The notes beneath the pieces are model-generated. The model saw only the letters and a list, made by a program, of their open reading frames with translations, was not told the origin of the DNA and did no database searches. The position numbers were made by a program, and so were the translations under genes. From a virus (lineage: Duplodnaviria > Caudoviricetes): a DNA stretch of 64,000 bases. Each line of letters begins with the position of its first letter. The stretch's first letter is position 1. The stretch spans positions 20,050 to 84,049 of the IMG/VR virus record IMGVR_UViG_3300042013_000018, one strand, 5' to 3'. Positions 7,311-41,155 of the stretch are shown in pieces.

Positions 7311-8623
7311 ATTTTAATGTCTAGATATTTTTCAGGAGTTCCTGTAGCACTTACAGGAAGACCAAGCCCACTACCGTTAACGGATTGTGCCCAGTATTGT
7401 ACAATGACGTTAGATGTTGTGCTGAGTGTGAATTGGCCGCTGGCCGTTGAGTCAGCAGACACTGTAGTTGTCATGATAACAGACAAGCCGTCTATCAGAA
7501 CTGTCGAATTTGTTGAGTTATATATTCTAGTTTTGGCCCGATCTACTCCGTAGATCTGCGAACCTAACTCACAGTAATACGTACCAGCGGGGAGTATTAG
7601 AGTATTAGAGGACAAACTAGCGCCAGAGATTTGATTAGTAATCGTAGTGTTGACAGTGCGTTGTTGCCAAGAGCCTGATACATTAGAGCCACCCGCTGTG
7701 CCTAGCGGACGTTGGTCAGTGGCTTGAAAGAGGGGGCTTCCTGATGCAGATATACCATCGATCTTTAATTTGTCTGCTGCTGTAAGTACACCAGCCGTTG
7801 TTGTTGTAGCTGAAGGTAGTGTAGTGCTCGCCCCCGTTGAGGATGTTACAACAACTGTGGATGCAGCTGGAGTATTCCCGAGATTCGTGCCTCCAACAGA
7901 TCCCGCTGCAACAGCTGCTGTGACAAAAGCTGTGCTGGCGATCTGTGTGTTATTAGTGCCTGCCGTTGCCGTTGGGGTTGTTGGAGTTCCTGTCAATGCT
8001 GGAGAGGCTAAATCTGCCTTTAAACCTAACCCTGCTGCAACAAATGCCGTATTGGCAACCTGTGTTGTAGATGCACCAGCACTAGCTGTCGGGACTATTG
8101 GAGTACCTGTGAATGTGGGTGAAGCAATATTAGCCTTCAAATTCAAAGCTGTCTGCTGAGCAGTGCTTACAGGCTTATTGGCATCAGTTGTATTGTCTAC
8201 GTTAGCAAGGCCCACATCTGTCTTAGTGAGAGTTACGTCACCTGTACGTGTTGCGACACTTGTTACGGTGTTGACTTGGGCACCTTCAGATACACCATTA
8301 AGCTTCGTCTTATCTGTTGCTGACATAAAGCCAGCTTCAGTTTGTGTGGCATTTGTATGTGCTGCACCACGACTACCAATATGGGTTGTTAGGTTTGTCT
8401 CAACACTATCTACACGAGTAGTCAAACCATCAATGTCAATAGCTTCTACAGCATCTTTAAGGTATTGTGTACGATTAGCAAGTTGCTGTTGAGCTACATT
8501 CAGATAGCCAGCAGTAGGAGTACCAAAGCTACTCTTTTCAGGACTACCACCAAGAAGTGGTGTAGTGGTTTCAACTTGAAATACTGTCTCTTCCCATACG
8601 GGATTCTCTACAATGTTACCCAT
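7295..8623 (-). CDS. Second tail fibre protein
   Basis: N-terminal NPVWEETVFQVETTTPLLGG...QQLANRTQYLK; repeated ASP(T/A)(F/L)TGTP..PTA..G..TQ(V/I)A.TAFV shaft units. Confidence 0.8.
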   Translation of the reverse strand: MGNIVENPVWEETVFQVETTTPLLGGSPEKSSFGTPTAGYLNVAQQQLANRTQYLKDAVEAIDIDGLTTRVDSVETNLTTHIGSRGAAHTNATQTEAGFMSATDKTKLNGVSEGAQVNTVTSVATRTGDVTLTKTDVGLANVDNTTDANKPVSTAQQTALNLKANIASPTFTGTPIVPTASAGASTTQVANTAFVAAGLGLKADLASPALTGTPTTPTATAGTNNTQIASTAFVTAAVAAGSVGGTNLGNTPAASTVVVTSSTGASTTLPSATTTTAGVLTAADKLKIDGISASGSPLFQATDQRPLGTAGGSNVSGSWQQRTVNTTITNQISGASLSSNTLILPAGTYYCELGSQIYGVDRAKTRIYNSTNSTVLIDGLSVIMTTTVSADSTASGQFTLSTTSNVIVQYWAQSVNGSGLGLPVSATGTPEKYLDIKIWKLS

Positions 8624-26591: not shown

Positions 26592-28034
26592 TTAGGTGAA
26601 GAGGTTTGGTCTAGTCAAATTTGCTGAGATCAGGCCAGAAGTGAAGTTTGGAATAATTTGTCTTTGAGCAAGGGTAATGAAAGAATCACTAGTTGCATCG
26701 ACTTGATCATCCTTATTTTTACGGCTGCCATCGAAGCTTTCCAACTCGTCAAAGTATGTATCGTTCCAATCAGCTTCAACATAATCAATCAGACCCGCTT
26801 CGGCGGCTGCTGCGAATGGTTGGAAACGTGTTATTTTTGACTTGTTAGAAGGGCGCATTCTGGCGTAAAACCCGTCTGACAAAAGCTCTTTAATCATCAT
26901 CTGTCCGGCAGCTTTACCGGCTTGTCCGGGCTCTTGAGGCAAGATAATCTCTGTACTTGGTGGGTCAGATTTGGCTGTTTCAATAATCTTAGCCATAACT
27001 TCACCAAACCTTGCACGAAACCTAACAACATCAACTACAATATATCGACCTTGTTTTGTCTTACCAATTAAAACACCAGCCGTCCAGTCAGGATTTGGTA
27101 AGGATTCCGATGGGATGGAACCTGCTATATCCCATGCACGACAGTAAGACACAATCTCTTTATCGAACAAATTAACTTTACTACAGAATTCTTTTTTCAT
27201 GAATCCTGCTGCACTTTCGCGAACAAACCAATTGCCCTCTAGGAGCCGTTTACGTTCAGTACCACGAAGACCTTTAAGCCAAGCTACATATTTAGGGTTA
27301 ACTTCTTCTACAATTTTATTATCATAAACGTTAGCGCTAATAAAGGTAAAAGATAGAGCATCTTGCTCTCTTACACCATACTCAGCCAGAAGTTGTTGTT
27401 TAGTATCACCCCAAACAAAATCACCATCCATGAAAGAAAAGTATCTCAACATCCCATCTTTTGAACGGTCAGGAGTTCCATCTTCTTGCAAATAAGGTTC
27501 AACCCACTTTCTGAGGCCGTGGTCAGCATCAGGATTGCAGGTGATTTTAAGGTGAGGTTTGATCGAAGGGCAAGAAGGGTTACGCATACGAGACATGATA
27601 TATTGTATCATGTACATCGTATATTGAGTTCCCTCATCAATATAGAAAAGATTAGCTTCAGAACCTTGCCAGTTTACATCCGCTGCATCATTCTCAAAGT
27701 GCTTGAGATAGATTTCAGCACCACTAGCATGGAACACGAATTTACCATCTTTCGCACGCCACGTATATTCATCTGGTTTATATGCTTGACTAAATACGCG
27801 CTTACATTTAGTTAGCAAACCACCCGGACCATTAAGTTGAGGCGTTGTACGACGGGTCATTACACCAATGAAGTTTGGAATGTCTGTATACTTGAGGAAG
27901 TCGATAACCCCAATTTCACTTTTTCCGCTCGCGGCTGCGCCACCGAATAAGGTTACGTCAGCCTCCGAGGCGATATACATACTTTGACGTAATGAACATG
28001 GCCCCGGTAGCTTTTTCTCAAGAATTTCAGCCAC
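26592..28034 (-). CDS. terL: Terminase large subunit (GTG start at 28034 after GAGGAGG)
   Basis: Walker A GGAAASGKS, Walker B FYIDEG, TCNPD coupling motif, nuclease RAWD...DDQVDA. Confidence 0.95.
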   Translation of the reverse strand: MAEILEKKLPGPCSLRQSMYIASEADVTLFGGAAASGKSEIGVIDFLKYTDIPNFIGVMTRRTTPQLNGPGGLLTKCKRVFSQAYKPDEYTWRAKDGKFVFHASGAEIYLKHFENDAADVNWQGSEANLFYIDEGTQYTMYMIQYIMSRMRNPSCPSIKPHLKITCNPDADHGLRKWVEPYLQEDGTPDRSKDGMLRYFSFMDGDFVWGDTKQQLLAEYGVREQDALSFTFISANVYDNKIVEEVNPKYVAWLKGLRGTERKRLLEGNWFVRESAAGFMKKEFCSKVNLFDKEIVSYCRAWDIAGSIPSESLPNPDWTAGVLIGKTKQGRYIVVDVVRFRARFGEVMAKIIETAKSDPPSTEIILPQEPGQAGKAAGQMMIKELLSDGFYARMRPSNKSKITRFQPFAAAAEAGLIDYVEADWNDTYFDELESFDGSRKNKDDQVDATSDSFITLAQRQIIPNFTSGLISANLTRPNLFT

Positions 28035-29190
28035 TTGTGGCCTCCTCAATGTATTTAATAATCAAGTCTTTAGCTTCATTACTAAAGCATTCAGTGTAGC
28101 CTGTGAACTTCTTAGTTGGTTTATGATAATAACCAAGAGATTTTAGTTCTCGCATAATCTTTCTTTCAAGATTTGCTGAGTCTATATTAATCATCTCTTT
28201 TTCATATACAAAGCTGTAATCGTAAATATCTTTTTGACGTTTGTAAACCTTTTCTCGGCCCTTCTTATTACAAGTAATACCAAGCTTAAGGAAAGATTCT
28301 TCACCATCAGACATTTCAATAATATAAATAGAACCTAATCTTTGACCAAGTTCTACATCTTCAGTGTATCGGTCAACCATATTATATGTTGTTTTATCAT
28401 AAGTGCATTGGGCGCAACCTTTACCTTTTACGTGGCATAGTGGTCGTTGCTCAAAAATCCCATGAACATCACATACAATCTTAACCTTTGTTTCTGTATT
28501 TACGTATTCTGCAAATTCATAAGAGTATTTATCTTTATGAATTTGCTTTGCCCGTTCAATAAAATATTCTGTTGTGTATTCTGAATAGCGTTGAAGTAAA
28601 CTTCTTTCAACACCGCACTTAGGACAACCATTTCCATACATATGCGGTCCGGCTGATTGAATAAACTCACCATGCTCTGGACAGCCAATGATAACTTTCT
28701 GAGTGAAGCCTTTAGTTAAAATAGCTTTAGAATAGTCATATTTATTTCCATGAAACTCTATGCTCTTAGCTAGAAAGTCATCTTGTGATAGTCTCTGCTT
28801 TTGTACGCTGCATTCTGGACAGCCACGGGACACCAAGTGGTGTGCTACCGTCTGACTGAATACCCCATGATCCTTACAAATAATATCGATTTTACTTGTA
28901 GTCTTGGTTGTAGTCACTAAACAATAGTCAAACTTGTTTTTGTGTATTGCGGAGGCTTCAACAACAAAGTCTTCAATAGAACGCTTGAGTGGGATAGACT
29001 CATGAACACAATGGCGACAACCTGCACCTTTCAGGTGAGAGTCTGTTCGCTGAACAAATATACCATGATCTGTACATTCAATATCAATGTAATATCTAGG
29101 ACCTCGTGCTTCCCAAGCAACATACTTATATTTGCTATCGTGCACGCTATTTGCTTTTTCTATAAATCTCTCGAAATTAAATTCTGGCAA
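28027..29190 (-). CDS. Homing-endonuclease-like protein with four Zn-ribbon (DUF723-like) repeats and GIY-YIG-like C-terminus
   Basis: Repeats I.C..HG.F.Q....H..G.GC..C; C-terminal GSIYIIEM...FLKLGIT. Confidence 0.8.
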   Translation of the reverse strand: MPEFNFERFIEKANSVHDSKYKYVAWEARGPRYYIDIECTDHGIFVQRTDSHLKGAGCRHCVHESIPLKRSIEDFVVEASAIHKNKFDYCLVTTTKTTSKIDIICKDHGVFSQTVAHHLVSRGCPECSVQKQRLSQDDFLAKSIEFHGNKYDYSKAILTKGFTQKVIIGCPEHGEFIQSAGPHMYGNGCPKCGVERSLLQRYSEYTTEYFIERAKQIHKDKYSYEFAEYVNTETKVKIVCDVHGIFEQRPLCHVKGKGCAQCTYDKTTYNMVDRYTEDVELGQRLGSIYIIEMSDGEESFLKLGITCNKKGREKVYKRQKDIYDYSFVYEKEMINIDSANLERKIMRELKSLGYYHKPTKKFTGYTECFSNEAKDLIIKYIEEATSG

Positions 29191-29221
29191 AACTGAAACC
29201 TCTGATTAGGTATTTAATAGG

Positions 29222-29276
29222 TGAGAGCTATCTACTGAATCAGCAGTAGAAGGGCTTGCAATCCTGTTCGCTCTCA
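29222..29276 (-). ncRNA. Three-way-junction RNA element upstream of the endonuclease
   Basis: TGAGAGC/GCTCTCA closing stem, TCTACTG/CAGTAGA hairpin, short AGG/CCT hairpin with TTGCAAG loop. Confidence 0.55.
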
Positions 29277-29286
29277 TTGTATTTCG

Positions 29287-29634
29287 TTATTCTACTTGAC
29301 CACTTGCTTTCAAATACTGGCTTGTCATAACCGAGCGGTCTCTGCCCCCAATACCATGCTTCTTCTTCACTACAGCTTTAAACTCAGACCATTCCATATC
29401 ATCAAGCTGTTCTTTCGTGAAGTTCTCTTGCATCACTTGAAACTGAAACCCCGGTTTGTTTTCCATAAGCTTGTCAGTCTTCAGATACATCCAGCAGCTA
29501 TGAGGGAAACGCAATGCTGGCACTTTATCTTCTTCAAGAGTAGCGCCCATATTGGCTAGCTCAATAACATTCTTCATGAATGTGTAGCCAATACCGTCAT
29601 TACCTGTAACCAATACTTTATATTCATTTGCCAT
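29287..29634 (-). CDS. Hypothetical conserved phage protein
   Basis: 115-aa ORF with RBS and its own promoter. Confidence 0.7.
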   Translation of the reverse strand: MANEYKVLVTGNDGIGYTFMKNVIELANMGATLEEDKVPALRFPHSCWMYLKTDKLMENKPGFQFQVMQENFTKEQLDDMEWSEFKAVVKKKHGIGGRDRSVMTSQYLKASGQVE

Positions 29635-29667
29635 CTTAATTCTCCTCTTATTCGTTTCAAGAAAGAG

Positions 29668-29697
29668 ACTATATCAAACTTAAACTCGTTCTGTCAA
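29668..29697 (-). promoter_or_regulatory. sigma70-like promoter
   Basis: TTGACA-18-TATAGT on minus strand. Confidence 0.6.
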
Positions 29698-29730
29698 GCT
29701 TTCATGTAAAATAATTGAAATAAATTTACT

Positions 29731-29754
29731 AAAAAGAATCCATCCATAGATTCT
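29731..29754 (-). terminator. Intrinsic terminator after the repeat fibre-like gene
   Basis: AGAATC/GATTCT stem followed by a T-run on minus strand. Confidence 0.55.
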
Positions 29755-29768
29755 CTATATAAAGTTAC

Positions 29769-30980
29769 TTAGTTACGAGGTGTAACCTGCACAGTAACAC
29801 TAGCTCCAACCAATGCAACAGTTGCTCCTAGCAATACTTCAACAGACAGCAGCGTCACAAGGTTTCTCTGCGCAGCCTGTACTACACAGCCTGTATTGCT
29901 CACAGACACAACCCTTACCATCTGATTAAACGTACCACCAATGATTTGTGGCTGAACATCAGGAGGAATTGTATAAGTGTTAGCAAAAGTAATTGTAATA
30001 TTTCCTGAAGCATCTGATGTTCCAAGGAAAGTTTCTACTTTACGCAATCCACTTGTAGCTGCTGTAAGAGAAGCTGTGGTGGCATAATTACTCAAGCTAC
30101 TTGTAAGAGCATATCCAGACAAGGCCGAGTTTGTGATATATCCACTGCCATTTGTAAGCTGATTGGTGTTTGTAGGAATCACTGGGGCATTTGTAAGACT
30201 TGAGTAAGGAATGCTTGCCCCTGTGCTTATCTTACTATCTAACGCTGTCTGTAACCCTGTCACGTCACTAATAGCATGTGTGTGGCTGCTAGGAGTAAAC
30301 GTTGTAGGCTTACCTGTTAGACTTGAATATGTCCCATCAAACAATACAGGCTTGTTTGTAAGGTCAGCATAACTACCACTAAATAGTGTGGGCTTTCCTA
30401 CCAAGTCAGTGTAATTTCCACTGAACAAAATAGGCTTACCAGATAAGTCTGAGTACGCCCCTGAGAACAGAGTAGGCTTGTTTAATATCTGAGAAACACC
30501 ACTAGTTGATGTCCAATCAGCGTTAACCTGAGCCACTTGAGGAGGAACACTTGTCAGAAATCCACTATCGTTTGTCAATTCACTAGTTCTGGTAGGAACC
30601 GATACAGCGCTTGGTTTATTAGATAGATCGTTGTAATCTCCTGAGAATAGCTCAGGCACATCTTCAAGATCATTGTAGCTACCAGAGCTTGCCACTTGAG
30701 ATAGTGCAAGATGTTCTTTCTGCTGATCAACAGTTGAATAAGATAGCCACGCTACAGCAGCAGGCATACACGCTGTTGCCTTAAACTGCCCTTGAGAATC
30801 TTTCATCAAGAGGCTGTTGTTTGACATATCAACTGAAGAGATTTCTGTAAGTACTGTTGAGGCTGGTTGTGCATTAAGGCTTTGGGATGTTATTACAACA
30901 TCACCTTGCTCACCATTCACAGAATTGACAGCACCTGTCGAGCTTGAATCATCACTTGGAAACATCGGACGTACTGGCAT
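29769..30980 (-). CDS. Fibre-like virion/decoration protein with 14-aa tandem repeats
   Basis: AVNSVNGEQGDV, repeated KP.LFSG.Y.DL.G units, HTHAISDVTGLQTALD motif. Confidence 0.7.
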   Translation of the reverse strand: MPVRPMFPSDDSSSTGAVNSVNGEQGDVVITSQSLNAQPASTVLTEISSVDMSNNSLLMKDSQGQFKATACMPAAVAWLSYSTVDQQKEHLALSQVASSGSYNDLEDVPELFSGDYNDLSNKPSAVSVPTRTSELTNDSGFLTSVPPQVAQVNADWTSTSGVSQILNKPTLFSGAYSDLSGKPILFSGNYTDLVGKPTLFSGSYADLTNKPVLFDGTYSSLTGKPTTFTPSSHTHAISDVTGLQTALDSKISTGASIPYSSLTNAPVIPTNTNQLTNGSGYITNSALSGYALTSSLSNYATTASLTAATSGLRKVETFLGTSDASGNITITFANTYTIPPDVQPQIIGGTFNQMVRVVSVSNTGCVVQAAQRNLVTLLSVEVLLGATVALVGASVTVQVTPRN

Positions 30981-30981
30981 A

Positions 30982-31245
30982 TTAGGCCACCTGTACGCAG
31001 AGACGACCAGAACCCTTAGCCCAGATAATGGACTCTCCTTGATCGATCATATACATTTCGACAGTGATAAGCTGTAGACCGTCTAGGGAAGAACTTGCAG
31101 GCTGGAAAGGTTTTAACTGGACACGGACATTACCCGTTCCCTTAAACTGAAGAAGAACTTTAGTTCCTACAGGAATACCGGAGAGGAGGTTTACATTCTG
31201 ATAGCTAACATTATCTAGCACAACATCTGCGATTGTATCTGACAT
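30982..31245 (-). CDS. Small hypothetical (probably structural partner of the fibre-like protein)
   Basis: 87-aa beta-rich ORF ending 1 nt before the next start. Confidence 0.6.
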   Translation of the reverse strand: MSDTIADVVLDNVSYQNVNLLSGIPVGTKVLLQFKGTGNVRVQLKPFQPASSSLDGLQLITVEMYMIDQGESIIWAKGSGRLCVQVA

Positions 31246-31298
31246 CTTAACACCTTTTTATATTTATTTTTAGGTGTCTGGTTATCAAGAGGTTTTAT

Positions 31299-31590
31299 AG
31301 CCGCAACAACAGACTACTACGGCTTCTAAGAATACAGCCTCTGTCTGTCTTGGGGTGTAACGAATAAGTGTGACCATTTCAGGTCACGAACCCCACCAGA
31401 GGTTCTAGGGGTCTCAGGAACTAGCTGAGATACCAAGCCGAGGCTTGATTAGTATTCCCTTGTTCTCACCCTACACCAACGAACATATAGAAATTGATGG
31501 GGTTGCTCTATACAGCCAAGGGAAATTCTTTATAGGTCATTTAAGCCCTATTAAACCGTCTTTATAGTATTAGTGGGTCAACTATAGTCT
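31299..31590 (-). ncRNA. Large multi-hairpin structured RNA (family unidentified)
   Basis: At least 7 stems in an ORF-free gap; G-U pairs favour the minus strand. Confidence 0.65.
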
Positions 31591-31597
31591 TTAAGCT

Positions 31598-32002
31598 TTA
31601 TTCGTCTTCCGGGTCAATATACACCAATGAAAGACGTGGTTTAAGCTCAGCAGCAATCTCCTTAGGAGTTTGTTCAGCTTCTTCATCTTCACGCTTGCCT
31701 TTCAGACGAGCATTGAACGAACCAAGCTCTTCTGCGCTTGCACTCTTGATCACCGAGACAATAGAGTTCAGTACCCACTTGGCACTTGCAACACTGTCAG
31801 CATTAACTTCTGTGCCAGCCAAACTCTTGTCTACTAGCTGTAGTGCAAGGTCTTGACGCTCAAGAAGCTTGTCAGCGAGTTCACGAAGTTTACTCTTCTT
31901 GATTCGAGTAGAAGAGTTTCCTGAAGTATTCCGATTACTTTTTTCGCCGTCGAACTGTGTCGCACGAGACTTGTCAGTTTGTGTGGGCTTCTTATTTGCC
32001 AT
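31598..32002 (-). CDS. Putative terminase small subunit
   Basis: N-terminal RATQF.G..S.RN.SGN motif, helical body; upstream of terL in the same block. Confidence 0.5.
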   Translation of the reverse strand: MANKKPTQTDKSRATQFDGEKSNRNTSGNSSTRIKKSKLRELADKLLERQDLALQLVDKSLAGTEVNADSVASAKWVLNSIVSVIKSASAEELGSFNARLKGKREDEEAEQTPKEIAAELKPRLSLVYIDPEDE

Positions 32003-32035
32003 GGTATTTACCTAAATGATTTGTTGATAGAATTT

Positions 32036-33046
32036 TCAAATCTCAATACCACCATACTCTAAGAATATTTCTCTTACAGTATCCAGATTTAATACCGAGG
32101 TTGTTTCAGAAAACCCTGCCTTCATGAATTCTCTAGGGACAATCCCACAGACTAATGTACTTTTACAATAACTCTCAGCCGCTCGGCACTGATTTCGATC
32201 ATTGAAATGGAAAAGATGTGTATTTTCAATTCGAAATACTGAGCTATATCTCTGTTCCTTAAGCCTTCTGGTTATGTCAGAAGTTATTCCGAATTTTATC
32301 GCAATAGGTAGATCATTATCGTAAACAATGTTGATATAAGATTGGTTCTGGTTTCCAAAGTTTGTACAGCCACAGCAGTAGACACCCCTCTTCAGTGCAG
32401 ATGCTTGAGCTTCGCCATAAACATTACAGACGGGGCATTCTACTGACCAGTATATGGCGAACCCGCTAGGACGTTTACCCAACCTTTTAAAGATAGTGTC
32501 AGGGTGATATTTTCCACTAGCAAAGAAAATGTCGCATGTCACAGAATTCTTATGTACTTTACGATCTATGGACTTAGATTCATTACCACAGGAAGGGCAC
32601 CCTCTTCCTAATTTAACTAAATTAGATAACTTACCGGATGTCCATGTCCCGTGCTTATTGCAAACAAGCTTGCATAGTGTGGTAGCTCCAATATAAGCTT
32701 CAGCCCATCCATCAAAATAGAATCCAAGTTCAGAACTCTTTCTCGTAGCTAAAAGTTTCCACTGATCTTCAGTCCAACGAACTCTAGGAGAGCAACCACA
32801 AGGTATCTGACCTCTATTTAAGTCTGTGAGCGTTGCCCAGAAGAAACCTTGATCAAAAAGTTCAGGATCTTTGGCACACTCATGACACTTGAGATAGTGT
32901 ATATTGTAATTTTTACTAGGATGTTTACTATAACCTAGCAACTCTAACTGTGGGTAGTTTACAAAAATAAAGCCATACTGAACATCATCCATTCTCTTTA
33001 AGTGGACGTTCTTCATATCTGCAATCATAAAACCTTCTTTAGTCAA
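32036..33046 (-). CDS. Homing-endonuclease-like protein (Zn-ribbon repeats plus GIY-YIG-like domain); likely start ATG 33028
   Basis: CxxC repeats (CHEC, CNKHG, CPSC, CPVC); SYINIV...IKFGITSDITRRL. Confidence 0.75.
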   Translation of the reverse strand: MTKEGFMIADMKNVHLKRMDDVQYGFIFVNYPQLELLGYSKHPSKNYNIHYLKCHECAKDPELFDQGFFWATLTDLNRGQIPCGCSPRVRWTEDQWKLLATRKSSELGFYFDGWAEAYIGATTLCKLVCNKHGTWTSGKLSNLVKLGRGCPSCGNESKSIDRKVHKNSVTCDIFFASGKYHPDTIFKRLGKRPSGFAIYWSVECPVCNVYGEAQASALKRGVYCCGCTNFGNQNQSYINIVYDNDLPIAIKFGITSDITRRLKEQRYSSVFRIENTHLFHFNDRNQCRAAESYCKSTLVCGIVPREFMKAGFSETTSVLNLDTVREIFLEYGGIEI

Positions 33047-33112
33047 ACTACCTGATAAGCCGCAACAGGGACGTTCAACTAACCCTACTCAAAAAGTAGT
33101 TTGCTAAAGAAG
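33034..33112 (-). promoter_or_regulatory. Long hairpin overlapping the translation initiation region of the endonuclease
   Basis: TTCTTTAGCAAACTAC pairs with GTAGTTTG(A)CTAAAGAA; the 3' arm abuts AAGG-TTTT-ATG. Confidence 0.6.
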
Positions 33113-33134
33113 TCTTTCTGTTGGACGTTTCTAA

Positions 33135-33383
33135 AGGCTGTTGCGCAGCCTGTGTAAAGTATGTAAATACTTTCTAAAATTATCTCAATAGGACAATACC
33201 TACAATATGCTACGCAAGGAGATAATTTTAGAAAGCTCACTGATAGTCGGGAGAGGGCAACTACCAATGAGTAAAGACATTTCTTGAGGAGAGCAAGTTG
33301 TCTTTAAGGTCCGGCATGAGGAGGGAGACGCCGGGAGGAAACACAGCATTAATAGAATTTCTTCTTGGTAGCTGTGGTGAAAC
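33135..33383 (-). ncRNA. Multi-hairpin sRNA with CU-rich anti-SD-like loops
   Basis: Six stems; three consecutive loops CUCCCUCCUC, CUCUCCU, GCCCUCUCCC; 17-bp perfect stem 33170-33186/33219-33235. Confidence 0.7.
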
Positions 33384-33457
33384 TGGTGCCCCAGTAAGGA
33401 ATCAAACCTCACTCTGTTGATTACAAGTCAACTGCATCATCACAATGCTTCAAGGGC
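33384..33457 (-). tRNA. trnT: tRNA-Thr(UGU), encoded CCA
   Basis: GCCCTTG..GCAT/ATGC D-arm, GTTGA-CTTGTAA-TCAAC anticodon arm, T-arm with TTTGATT loop, GGGGC-A-CCA end. Confidence 0.85.
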
Positions 33458-33584
33458 GAATCAGTTAGTAGAATTAAAACCCTTTACCGTCACGGACTGC
33501 CCTTTTCACAGGGAGGAACACAACCATTATTATATAATGGGACACTTCAGTGTTTTTAATGTTCTTTGCTATTTCACGTTTACT

Positions 33585-33612
33585 ATTATACAGACTTATT
33601 TGAGAATGTCAA
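33585..33612 (-). promoter_or_regulatory. Consensus sigma70 promoter upstream of the tRNA/ncRNA block
   Basis: TTGACA-16-TATAAT. Confidence 0.8.
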
Positions 33613-33660
33613 CACATTTCTATTAAATTGTATACATTTATTAGCTGTCTCTATCAGGCA

Positions 33661-33852
33661 TCACTTTCTTAAAGACTGTTCCATAGTGACTGATACCCTC
33701 GTGTTGATATTCCCAGCGAAAGCATCCATCAACAAACTCTTCAGCACTTTCTTCAAAGAAGCATACACAATCTTTTTCTTCAGCCCCACAATCAGGGCAA
33801 TAGTTTTCGTTGCCCATTCTTGTGGACTCCAGTTAGTTAACTTCGATTTCAT
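33661..33852 (-). CDS. Small basic hypothetical protein
   Basis: 63-aa ORF in operon orientation; weak RBS. Confidence 0.35.
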   Translation of the reverse strand: MKSKLTNWSPQEWATKTIALIVGLKKKIVYASLKKVLKSLLMDAFAGNINTRVSVTMEQSLRK

Positions 33853-33901
33853 TAATGTAGCAAGAAAGCTTGCAATAAAGCAAGCCCCTTGACAACTAAT
33901 A

Positions 33902-34651
33902 CTAGATATAATTATAAAGTTTCTTATAATTCACGAAATAGTATGGATCATCTTTATACTTATCATAAACCCTTCTGGCTTTTTTACACCGCTTACCTGA
34001 GCGGATGTATGAAATGTATGACTGGTCTAGTCCTACAATTTTAGCTACTTGAGACAGACTTAAATCCCCATCACACAACCTGAAAAGGTCAATATAGTGA
34101 TTCCAGCAATGTAATGGGTAGTCTTGGTTATGAGTCTTACAGACTGCCAAAAACTCTTCCGGGATGTGGTTTTCTTTGTACCACTCCTTTTTAATGGATT
34201 GATCAATTGCTTTACGATCAATACCCGAAGTATCTCCAGTAAGGATAAATCTGACAGCCCGCTCCTTTATAAAAGCCTCTGTTAGTGTCCTCCCAATGGT
34301 TAGACCTGTGTCCCAAGAGTGTTTAATGTTTTCTGATTTTGTTGCCCATTCAAGGTTTTCAACTCTATTATCTCCTTTATCTCCATTTATATGATTTACT
34401 TCAGGTTTATTTTCAGGGTTGGGGATAAAGGCTTCGGCCACCAATCTGTGGTGATACTTGTGTTCTTGTTTTTGTCCTTTTAAAGAGACTGCACACATGT
34501 GATATGTAAACTCTTGCCTTGATTCCACGTAGAACCTTTTCTCTCCTACAGATACTTTACCACGGATATGTGAAAATACCTTACCCTCTGTATTTACAGA
34601 GTATCGCCCTTCATATCCATCAACCCACTTTTCATTTTCTTCCAACATCAT
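33902..34651 (-). CDS. NUMOD4-HNH homing endonuclease
   Basis: [19 protein letters not shown] (NUMOD4); [35 protein letters not shown] (HNH). Confidence 0.9.
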
Positions 34652-40761: not shown

Positions 40762-41155
40762 AGCAGCACATGACAAACACACAGGAGAGAATATTAATGA
40801 GTACAATAGTAAAGGATGATTTCTACGTCAAATATCTAGGACCAACTGATGAGGATCTTATCAAAGGTCAGATTTACCCTATAGAATCTCTGAAGGTTGA
40901 GAAGAGTTATTTTGGATTGGGTTGGCCTGCAATTTATTTTGAATTCTACCCTACTTTGACATCAGGTTTGTTTGACCGTGCAGTTGGTGACGAGAATTTC
41001 ATTGTTGTGCAAGCTGACTATTGGGTTGAGCAAGAGCTTGGCTATCCAAAAGATGGTGAAGTTATTGAGTATATGGGTTGTAAGTTTCCTTGGTCTGGTT
41101 CAGAATTCAGTTTACCCCTAATGAAAATGGCTCGTAGGAATAAGGCAGATTGGTA

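Follow-up and report, generated by a model that had tools for sequence, protein, structure and literature searches.

What does a phage encode in a segment of about 250 nt that has no open reading frame, folds into a row of hairpins and lies directly 3' of a tRNA gene? The segment occupies positions 33135-33383, minus strand, of the window, by which we mean the whole 64,000-nucleotide stretch analysed (bases 20050-84049 of a phage record that is 84,049 bp long and has direct terminal repeats). An earlier note, made from the letters of the sequence, had described it as a minus-strand RNA of six stems whose C/U-rich loops would act as anti-Shine-Dalgarno (anti-SD) sequences. All of the stems listed there were reproduced by the computed fold. 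Specifically, the minus strand has a minimum free energy of -79.8 kcal/mol, a value matched by 0/200 dinucleotide shuffles (z = -8.09); the plus strand of the same segment reached a z of -3.17 only. The tRNA-Thr immediately 5' and the TTGACA-16-TATAAT promoter on the same strand were likewise recovered, using ARAGORN, Rfam and a consensus match of 12/12.

The features of the locus are collected in Table 1. The loops of hairpins H2, H3 and H4, which are CUCCCUCCUC, CUCUCCU and CCCUCUCC, respectively, each had an unpaired probability of 1.00, and the linker that had been counted as a fourth CU motif is indeed exposed. A fifth CU stretch, AUCUCCUU, lies within H5 and is mostly paired (unpaired probability 0.25). 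The sixth hairpin had been counted as part of the RNA and has to be removed from it, being borne by an inserted endonuclease cassette and missing from all 15 other members of the family described below. H6 is a weak terminator at best, with UUUAG after it, and was not called as a terminator. The conserved part of the locus is a structured, ORF-free RNA of ~215 nt at about 33171-33383 on the minus strand.

Table 1. Features of the RNA locus in the window, listed 5' to 3' along the minus strand
Feature	Position	Strand	Basis and remarks
HNH endonuclease	33902..34651	-	flanks the RNA locus
Sigma-70 consensus promoter TTGACA-16-TATAAT	33585..33612	-	12/12 match; 229 nt 5' of the RNA
Leader, promoter to tRNA, ~127 nt	33458..33584	-	read from sequence and fold
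tRNA-Thr (UGU) with encoded CCA	33384..33457	-	ARAGORN; Rfam tRNA, 47.3 bits; zero gap to the RNA
Single-stranded 5' tail GUUUCAC	33377..33383	-	alignment; GUUUCACC in most members, in any upstream context
H1: CACAGC/GCUGUG stem, AGAA-GAAA-UUCU tip, purine-rich AAGAAGAAA	33342..33376	-	fold
Linker UUUCCUCC, exposed fourth CU motif	33334..33341	-	unpaired probability 0.86
H2: CCGGCGU/AUGCCGG 7-bp stem displaying CUCCCUCCUC; loop 33318-33327	33311..33334	-	fold
H3: interrupted 12-bp stem displaying CUCUCCU; loop 33287-33293	33272..33306	-	fold; covariation
H4: 14-bp stem, G-U pairs included; CCCUCUCC displayed in loop 33250-33257	33236..33271	-	fold
H5: perfect 17-bp stem with two small hairpins on top	33171..33235	-	fold, alignment; 3' end of the conserved RNA
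H6: AGGCUG-CGCAA-CAGCCU hairpin	33135..33152	-	inside the inserted endonuclease cassette; outside the RNA family
CapR / T5orf172-type homing endonuclease	32036..33028	-	phrog_681 4e-55, PF21817, PF10544
Basic 134-aa protein, first gene of the packaging/structural block	31598..32002	-	homologues directly 3' of the RNA in relatives

Homologues were searched for using short patterns from the window sequence against IMG/VR and metagenomes. The true homologues found in this way were L008, L026, L145, L146 and L152; L004, L005-L015 except L008, and more than 100 hits of one 15-mer were mostly chance hits, and many such hits were discarded on reading. A covariance model, R1, was built from four sequences (218 positions, 52 pairs) and run over 24 phage records, comprising phages that share the portal protein and the records from the pattern search. 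Full-length matches were obtained in 13 of the 24 records, among them 12 of the 15 that were at least 90% complete, with scores from 237 down to 20 bits. By covariance model, the family numbers 16 members in all, with lengths of 197-252 nt. Three genomes missed by R1 were read by eye. G008 has the complete architecture after a tRNA, with a long insertion in H5; in G004, GUUUCACC, H1 and CU-loop hairpins are joined by an H5 that resembles the one in L207; and G021 has a reduced form, two CU-motif hairpins after a promoter of its own. Counting the 12 found by R1 and these 3, the RNA is present in 15/15 near-complete relatives (84-93 kb), in addition to the window's own genome.

The 16 members, folded independently, all gave one layout: a 5' tail, usually GUUUCACC, followed by H1, three CU-loop hairpins and H5. 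The three hairpins are adjacent and stable (11-15 bp) with pyrimidine loops, and H5 is usually a three-way junction. A strict filter recognised two CU-loop hairpins in L204 and two in L208. In an alignment of the family, A2, 92% of the cells are paired and 41 of the 52 pairs show double changes, counts that are somewhat inflated because A2 was fitted to R1, and with which the independent single-sequence folds agree. The covariation score of A2 was 0.54 against 0.17 in shuffles, and 0/500 shuffles reached the A2 value; in slid controls, for which partners were shifted by one, two or three columns, double changes were seen in no more than 14 pairs. Double changes occur in 7/7 pairs of H2, and 8/8 modelled pairs of H4 covary. 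The outer pairs of H1 also covary (7/7), whereas its inner AGAA/UUCU helix is kept as sequence, as is the H5 base, UUUCUWAA/UUWAGAAA, family-wide. Distant members have loop sequence, and no stem sequence, in common. The earlier note had set loops drifting while stems vary as an outcome that would speak against its reading, and the opposite was found: the loops are kept and the stems covary. In H1, the tip (AGAA…UUCU) and the purine run AAGAAGAAA are marked by sequence conservation rather than covariation, and since the run is partly complementary to CUUCU-type loops, it could touch the CU loops intramolecularly.

The pairs themselves indicate the strand. On the minus (CU) strand, the modelled pairs include 50 G-U against 13 A-C, and the CU-strand fold is more stable than that of the opposite strand in 16/16 members. 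Based on the G-U excess and the folding energies, the RNA lies on the gene strand, as the earlier note had it for this ORF-free segment, and the wobble-pair asymmetry shows that selection acts at the RNA level. No terminator was called at 33135-33383, and no consistent U tract lies 3' of H5 across members, so read-through into the structural genes is likely.

Searches of Rfam at gathering and permissive thresholds, using the window and 15 related loci, returned only tRNAs and one sub-threshold match to ar14; in the window, tRNAs excepted, no family matched even at E ≤ 10. For ar14, which has a gathering threshold of 58.8 bits, the best relative was L199 at 38.8 bits. No paper describing the RNA was found, the comparison being with literature other than the ~8,500 candidate structured RNAs from IMG/VR (PMC10690425). 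The RNA is thus a member of a clade-wide, previously uncatalogued structured RNA family, in keeping with the earlier remark that no such system was known from a lytic gammaproteobacterial phage.

The clade consists of uncultured 84-93 kb phages whose closest relatives in culture infect Pseudomonas and are of the Felix-O1/Ounavirinae type. By portal identity (42-52%), these are vB_PsaM_M1 (Ounavirinae), vB_PpS_SYP, phiPMW, KIL1 and PAK_P1. R1 had no match in any of the five. The window region and two divergent members, compared with GenBank phages by BLASTN, gave no homologue, and no cultured member was found. A gap in phiPMW was considered as an RNA locus and rejected, as it holds ordinary terminators. 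An intergenic region of vB_PsaM_M1 (L216 7763-7975; record 40762-40974) carries CUUAAAGAC, the start of the family H3, together with one 9-bp hairpin with the loop UGUUCUCCUC and an exposed AUCCUCCUAC. Overall, this region is not significantly structured (z = -0.65), and it could at most represent a degenerate remnant or decayed kin of the RNA.

The 46 displayed loops of the 16 members contain 258 C, 215 U, 10 A and 0 G, or 98% pyrimidine. CUCC occurs in 44 of the 46, UCUCC in 38, CUCUCC in 33 and the consensus CUCUCCU in 29. Loop length ranges from 7 to 20 nt with composition kept, each RNA has three to five CU sites, and 446 unpaired C stand against 61 unpaired G. The anti-SD of 16S rRNA is CCUCCU; this exact core is present in 9/46 loops, and CCUCC in 10/46. 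Of the claim that the loops are anti-SD sequences, the multivalent, anti-SD-like display stands, while the loops are not exact copies, UCUCC (38/46) being far more frequent than CCUCCU. The multivalent display is real and under selection.

A tRNA exactly abuts the 5' end of the RNA in the window, L198 and L201, that is, in 3/16 modelled members, and in G008. A conserved small ORF precedes the RNA in L146, L205 and L210, its stop codon lying only a few bases from the RNA start; in the remaining members, the upstream sequence was not called as tRNA by ARAGORN or Rfam. Release by tRNA 3' processing, proposed in the earlier note, therefore does not hold as a general rule. On the 3' side, the gene of a basic 130-138-aa protein starts 20-36 nt after H5 in eight relatives. 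In other members, a tRNA (as in L207, where it separates the RNA from the downstream operon), another element or, in the window, a 1.1-kb endonuclease cassette lies between the two; a different gene is 3' of the RNA in L146, L198 and L199. The tRNA link is optional; what stays constant is that the RNA heads the packaging/structural block.

In the window, the CapR / T5orf172 endonuclease gene is an insertion between the RNA and the conserved 134-aa gene. The 134-aa protein had no match in PHROG, Pfam or GenBank phages and, from its position, may be a small terminase. Further downstream on the same strand are genes for the terminase large subunit, portal, capsid and tape measure. Three homing-endonuclease genes lie inside 7 kb on the minus strand (28027-29190, 32036-33028 and 33902-34651). 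Two of these are phrog_681/CapR-type paralogues, one just 5' of the large terminase gene and the other separating the RNA from the 134-aa gene; the remaining one is of the HNH type. The region 28027-34651 is a hotspot of mobile insertions. A second ORF-free segment, 31246-31600 (minus), with moderate structure (z = -2.58), is found just 3' of the 134-aa gene, and GUAGGGUGAGAACAAGGGAAUAC within it closely resembles the sequence immediately 5' of the hairpin RNA in L208 (…GUAGGGUGAGACAAGGGAAUACCA); the segment is possibly a further mobile module of the clade, of small-RNA or tRNA-like kind. A conserved element, CCUAGUCGGG…GUUCAGAGG(C/U)AGAACAC, is present 3' of the RNA in L003 (~7940-8100) and just 3' of it in L202. 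The element includes D-arm-like sequence, and ARAGORN calls no tRNA there.

Promoters scoring 10-12/12 were also found 141-432 nt 5' of the RNA in L203, L206, L207 and L208. The leader in the window has an additional UUCCUCCCU / GUUCCUCCCUG motif at about 33506-33523 (minus). A similar motif, GUUCCUCCUGU, is 5' of the RNA in L200, and in L008 it lies ~40 nt 5' of the RNA, at a comparable distance, without a tRNA. Based on the motif in the window and its tRNA-free counterpart in L008, the tRNA may be an insertion into a longer non-coding unit. L207 (G003) encodes a 58-aa Cys-rich protein (MGNENYCPDCGAEEKD…) in a gene near-identical to that at 33641-33817 of the window, with a 12/12 promoter upstream. 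The hairpin RNA of L207 is strongly diverged, scoring 48 bits against 222 for the window. A near-identical gene beside a diverged RNA suggests that phages have swapped the RNA module by mosaic exchange.

We examined the ribosome-binding sites (RBSs) of the clade using crude gene calls in 13 genomes (G000 and 12 relatives). GGAGA exceeds GGAGG by 43 to 5 in the window's genome and by 595 to 176 over the 13 genomes (~3.4 to 1), a preference that parallels that of the loops for UCUCC over CCUCC, the ratios being similar. G021 is the sole relative with CCUCC-type loops and also the sole genome rich in GGAGG RBSs (39), which is a single case. In the window's genome, GGAGA RBSs precede 6/36 structural genes and 37/97 other genes (p = 0.02); in the small-gene block at 35.6-50.4 kb of the window, the proportion is 17/34 (p = 0.005 versus structural genes). 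The direction is the same in 12/12 relatives, with 48/340 structural genes (14%) against 504/1735 others (29%), where a pooled p-value would not be a true probability because the relatives share kinship. The duplex CUCUCCU:AGGAGAG has an energy of -9.8 kcal/mol, compared to -6.9 for the 16S tail at the same site, and as the loop has U at two positions, it can pair with either A or G there. The exact heptamer AGGAGAG was considered as a preferred phage RBS and rejected as not general: GGAGAG makes up ~24% of the GGAGA sites in the 13 genomes and, over all of them, is not enriched beyond base composition. A comparative duplex scan for targets returned no single conserved orthologous target. These results fit, and do not prove, an RNA that would bind RBSs in general, possibly sparing structural genes.

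Judged from sequence, multivalent pairing with GGAG-type RBSs is the most likely function of the RNA, and we give it slightly less than an even chance. The RNA would be made as part of a longer gene-strand precursor, which in the window would start at the sigma-70 promoter and include tRNA-Thr. It is probably excised, with the 5' end at the tRNA 3' end or at GUUUCACC and the 3' end at the long H5 stem; the 5' tail with GUUUCACC is a possible processing site. The three stable hairpins would serve as scaffolds that keep the G-free pyrimidine loops (core CUCC, consensus CUCUCCU) single-stranded. These loops, and the similar motif in the exposed linker, could then pair with the purine-rich GGAG(A/G) Shine-Dalgarno regions of mRNAs. 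With several sites per RNA molecule, ribosome binding could be occluded or the message marked for decay. Possible targets are mRNAs of the host or, within the phage itself, those of the non-structural genes with their GGAGA-rich RBSs. A broader proposal, that one multivalent RNA is a general RBS mask on host messages or on GGAGA-rich early/middle genes and thereby favours translation of structural genes, in which GGAGA is mostly avoided, appears to us unlikely.

Several points weigh against RBS pairing. The loops differ from the exact anti-SD; GGAGAG is not enriched, and the target scan gave no single conserved target; both the preference for GGAGA and the scarcity of GGAGA among structural genes may reflect the genomes in general and have no link to the RNA; and an RNA that binds every strong SD would hit phage genes too, unless timing or stoichiometry sorts them. 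Alternatively, the RNA may be a decoy, in which the pyrimidine loops titrate a C/U-binding protein of host or phage, such as S1, Rho (which binds YC dinucleotides), cold-shock proteins or KH-domain proteins (PNPase, NusA), and so alter translation, termination or RNA decay in infection. Loops without G and almost without A follow a stricter rule than GGAG pairing needs, and the variable loop length at constant composition, the surplus of unpaired C over G, the three to five sites per RNA and the failure of any conserved mRNA target to emerge are all as a decoy would have them. However, neither co-occurrence nor context links a candidate protein to the RNA, S1 and Rho have a loose pyrimidine preference that is less specific than the invariant CUCC core, and Rho loads poorly on highly structured RNA; we regard a protein sponge as a doubtful reading. 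Phage pseudo-ToxI RNAs neutralise ToxN, and by pure analogy the RNA might draw off an RNase or defence factor with which the host attacks the 3' tail of 16S rRNA or CU-rich sites like it. It displays several copies of a motif like that tail, and these phages have many genes for tRNAs and RNA repair (in kin, RNA ligase and polynucleotide kinase). Few loops, however, have the exact 16S sequence, as noted above, and no defence or counter-defence gene is linked; we consider such a decoy very improbable.

A further point against RBS pairing is the strict position before the packaging/structural block, which would suit a cis-acting role too. The RNA could be a leader that acts on its own transcript: an RNase III/E processing and stabilising module, a processive antitermination or Rho-modulating element, or a standby/regulatory site for the downstream genes. 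It always heads the structural block, either close to the 130-138-aa gene, as in the eight relatives, or with an insertion between; no canonical terminator follows H5; and the H5 base and 5' GUUUCACC are conserved in sequence, as expected of processing or binding sites. Yet the gene that follows is a different one in L146, L198 and L199, and the endonuclease cassette (window) or a tRNA (L207) may intervene, so that immediate adjacency to the operon is dispensable. A leader would also leave three identical loop motifs without a reason, and the RBSs of the downstream genes (AAAGG, AGGAA, GAGG) are not complementary to the loops. We regard this role as rather unlikely. Two further readings are close to untenable. 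One is a plus-strand sponge for CsrA/RsmA, comparable to CsrB/RsmZ: the complementary loops (GAGGAGGGAG, AGGAGAG and GGAGAGGG) all present GGA at hairpin tips and some structure is found on the plus strand too, but the G-U excess and the greater stability of the sense strand exclude a sponge on that strand. Moreover, all flanking genes and the tRNA are on the CU strand, no strong plus-strand promoter or terminator flanks the segment, and Rfam gave no match to CsrB, RsmY or RsmZ. The other, which we consider negligible in probability, is a trivial or DNA-level feature, such as terminators in a row, a site for packaging or for endonuclease cleavage, or hairpins formed by chance. The locus is indeed beside homing endonucleases and near packaging genes. 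However, the element is kept in genomes without these endonucleases, the direct terminal repeats are elsewhere, H2-H4 lack U tracts, and chance hairpins are excluded by a z of -8 and the covariation. An array of intrinsic terminators was rejected on the terminator calls and H5 flanks described above. A packaging RNA of the phi29 type was rejected as well, the phage having Mu-type portal and TMP genes; the H2-H4 loops, being pyrimidine-only, are not mutually complementary, which also argues against it.

Among described RNAs, the closest in design are the cuckoo/ar14 sRNAs (RF02344; CcsR1-4/RSs0680a-d, NfeR1), with which the family shares adjacent hairpins, a common C/U loop motif and compensating stems. 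Cuckoo RNAs are defined by 2-4 adjacent hairpins with one anti-SD-like loop motif and highly variable, compensating stems (PMC4615179), and as in cuckoo, there is little sequence conservation here outside the loop motif. The loops differ, however: CUCUCCU here versus CCUCCUCCC in every cuckoo hairpin (PMC4615179). Also unlike cuckoo/ar14, the present RNA has H1 and a three-way H5 in addition and belongs to a virulent-type phage, at a fixed site before structural genes and amid tRNA genes. The RNA thus falls outside the cuckoo/ar14 family, for whose model the window gave no match at E ≤ 10 and L199 stayed below the threshold. The CcsR RNAs are cut from a longer transcript behind an upstream gene (PMC8034643). 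In Staphylococcus aureus RNAIII, several loops with a C-rich motif (UCCC or CCCC) pair with the SDs of several mRNAs (PMC4615179), and the present RNA resembles RNAIII and the RsaE/RoxS-type sRNAs in having C-rich hairpin loops that could pair with SDs. It is unlike RNAIII in that the two have no sequence or structural homology, RNAIII is 514 nt long and encodes a peptide, and motif and host group differ.

As a non-coding RNA beside tRNA genes, it resembles Escherichia coli 3'ETS-leuZ, the T4 band C/D RNAs and the sRNA1 and sRNA2 of phage PAK_P3. These tRNA-adjacent RNAs are released from a tRNA precursor; 3'ETS-leuZ sponges sRNAs and has no CU loops. To our knowledge, the RNAs of the T4 tRNA cluster have stood unexplained since the 1970s. 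PAK_P3, a distant relative, produces abundant intergenic RNAs of ~100 nt beside tRNAs late in infection (PMC4933390). No relation is detectable to its sRNA2, which is defined by a T-loop-like 11-mer, and tRNA linkage is optional in the present family. The nearest functional parallel to RBS pairing is found in T4, where RegB cuts GGAG in early messages (PMC1702504) and RegB and RegA shut off early messages (PMC1702504, PMC3014915). This is an analogy of function only, a phage acting on its own GGAG SD class. The agents are proteins in T4 and would be an RNA here, where GGAGA RBSs are concentrated in non-structural genes.

We know of very few small RNAs of virulent phages that have a known function. 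Against that background, the present family is unusually clear-cut: it occurs in every near-complete genome of the clade, shows strong covariation, and repeats its candidate active site 3-5 times. If RBS masking is its function, the RNA would be an RNA-only route by which a lytic phage reprograms translation, as well as a multivalent anti-RBS scaffold that is compact and designable. Should a protein be what the loops bind, the RNA would reveal a host factor that these phages need to titrate.
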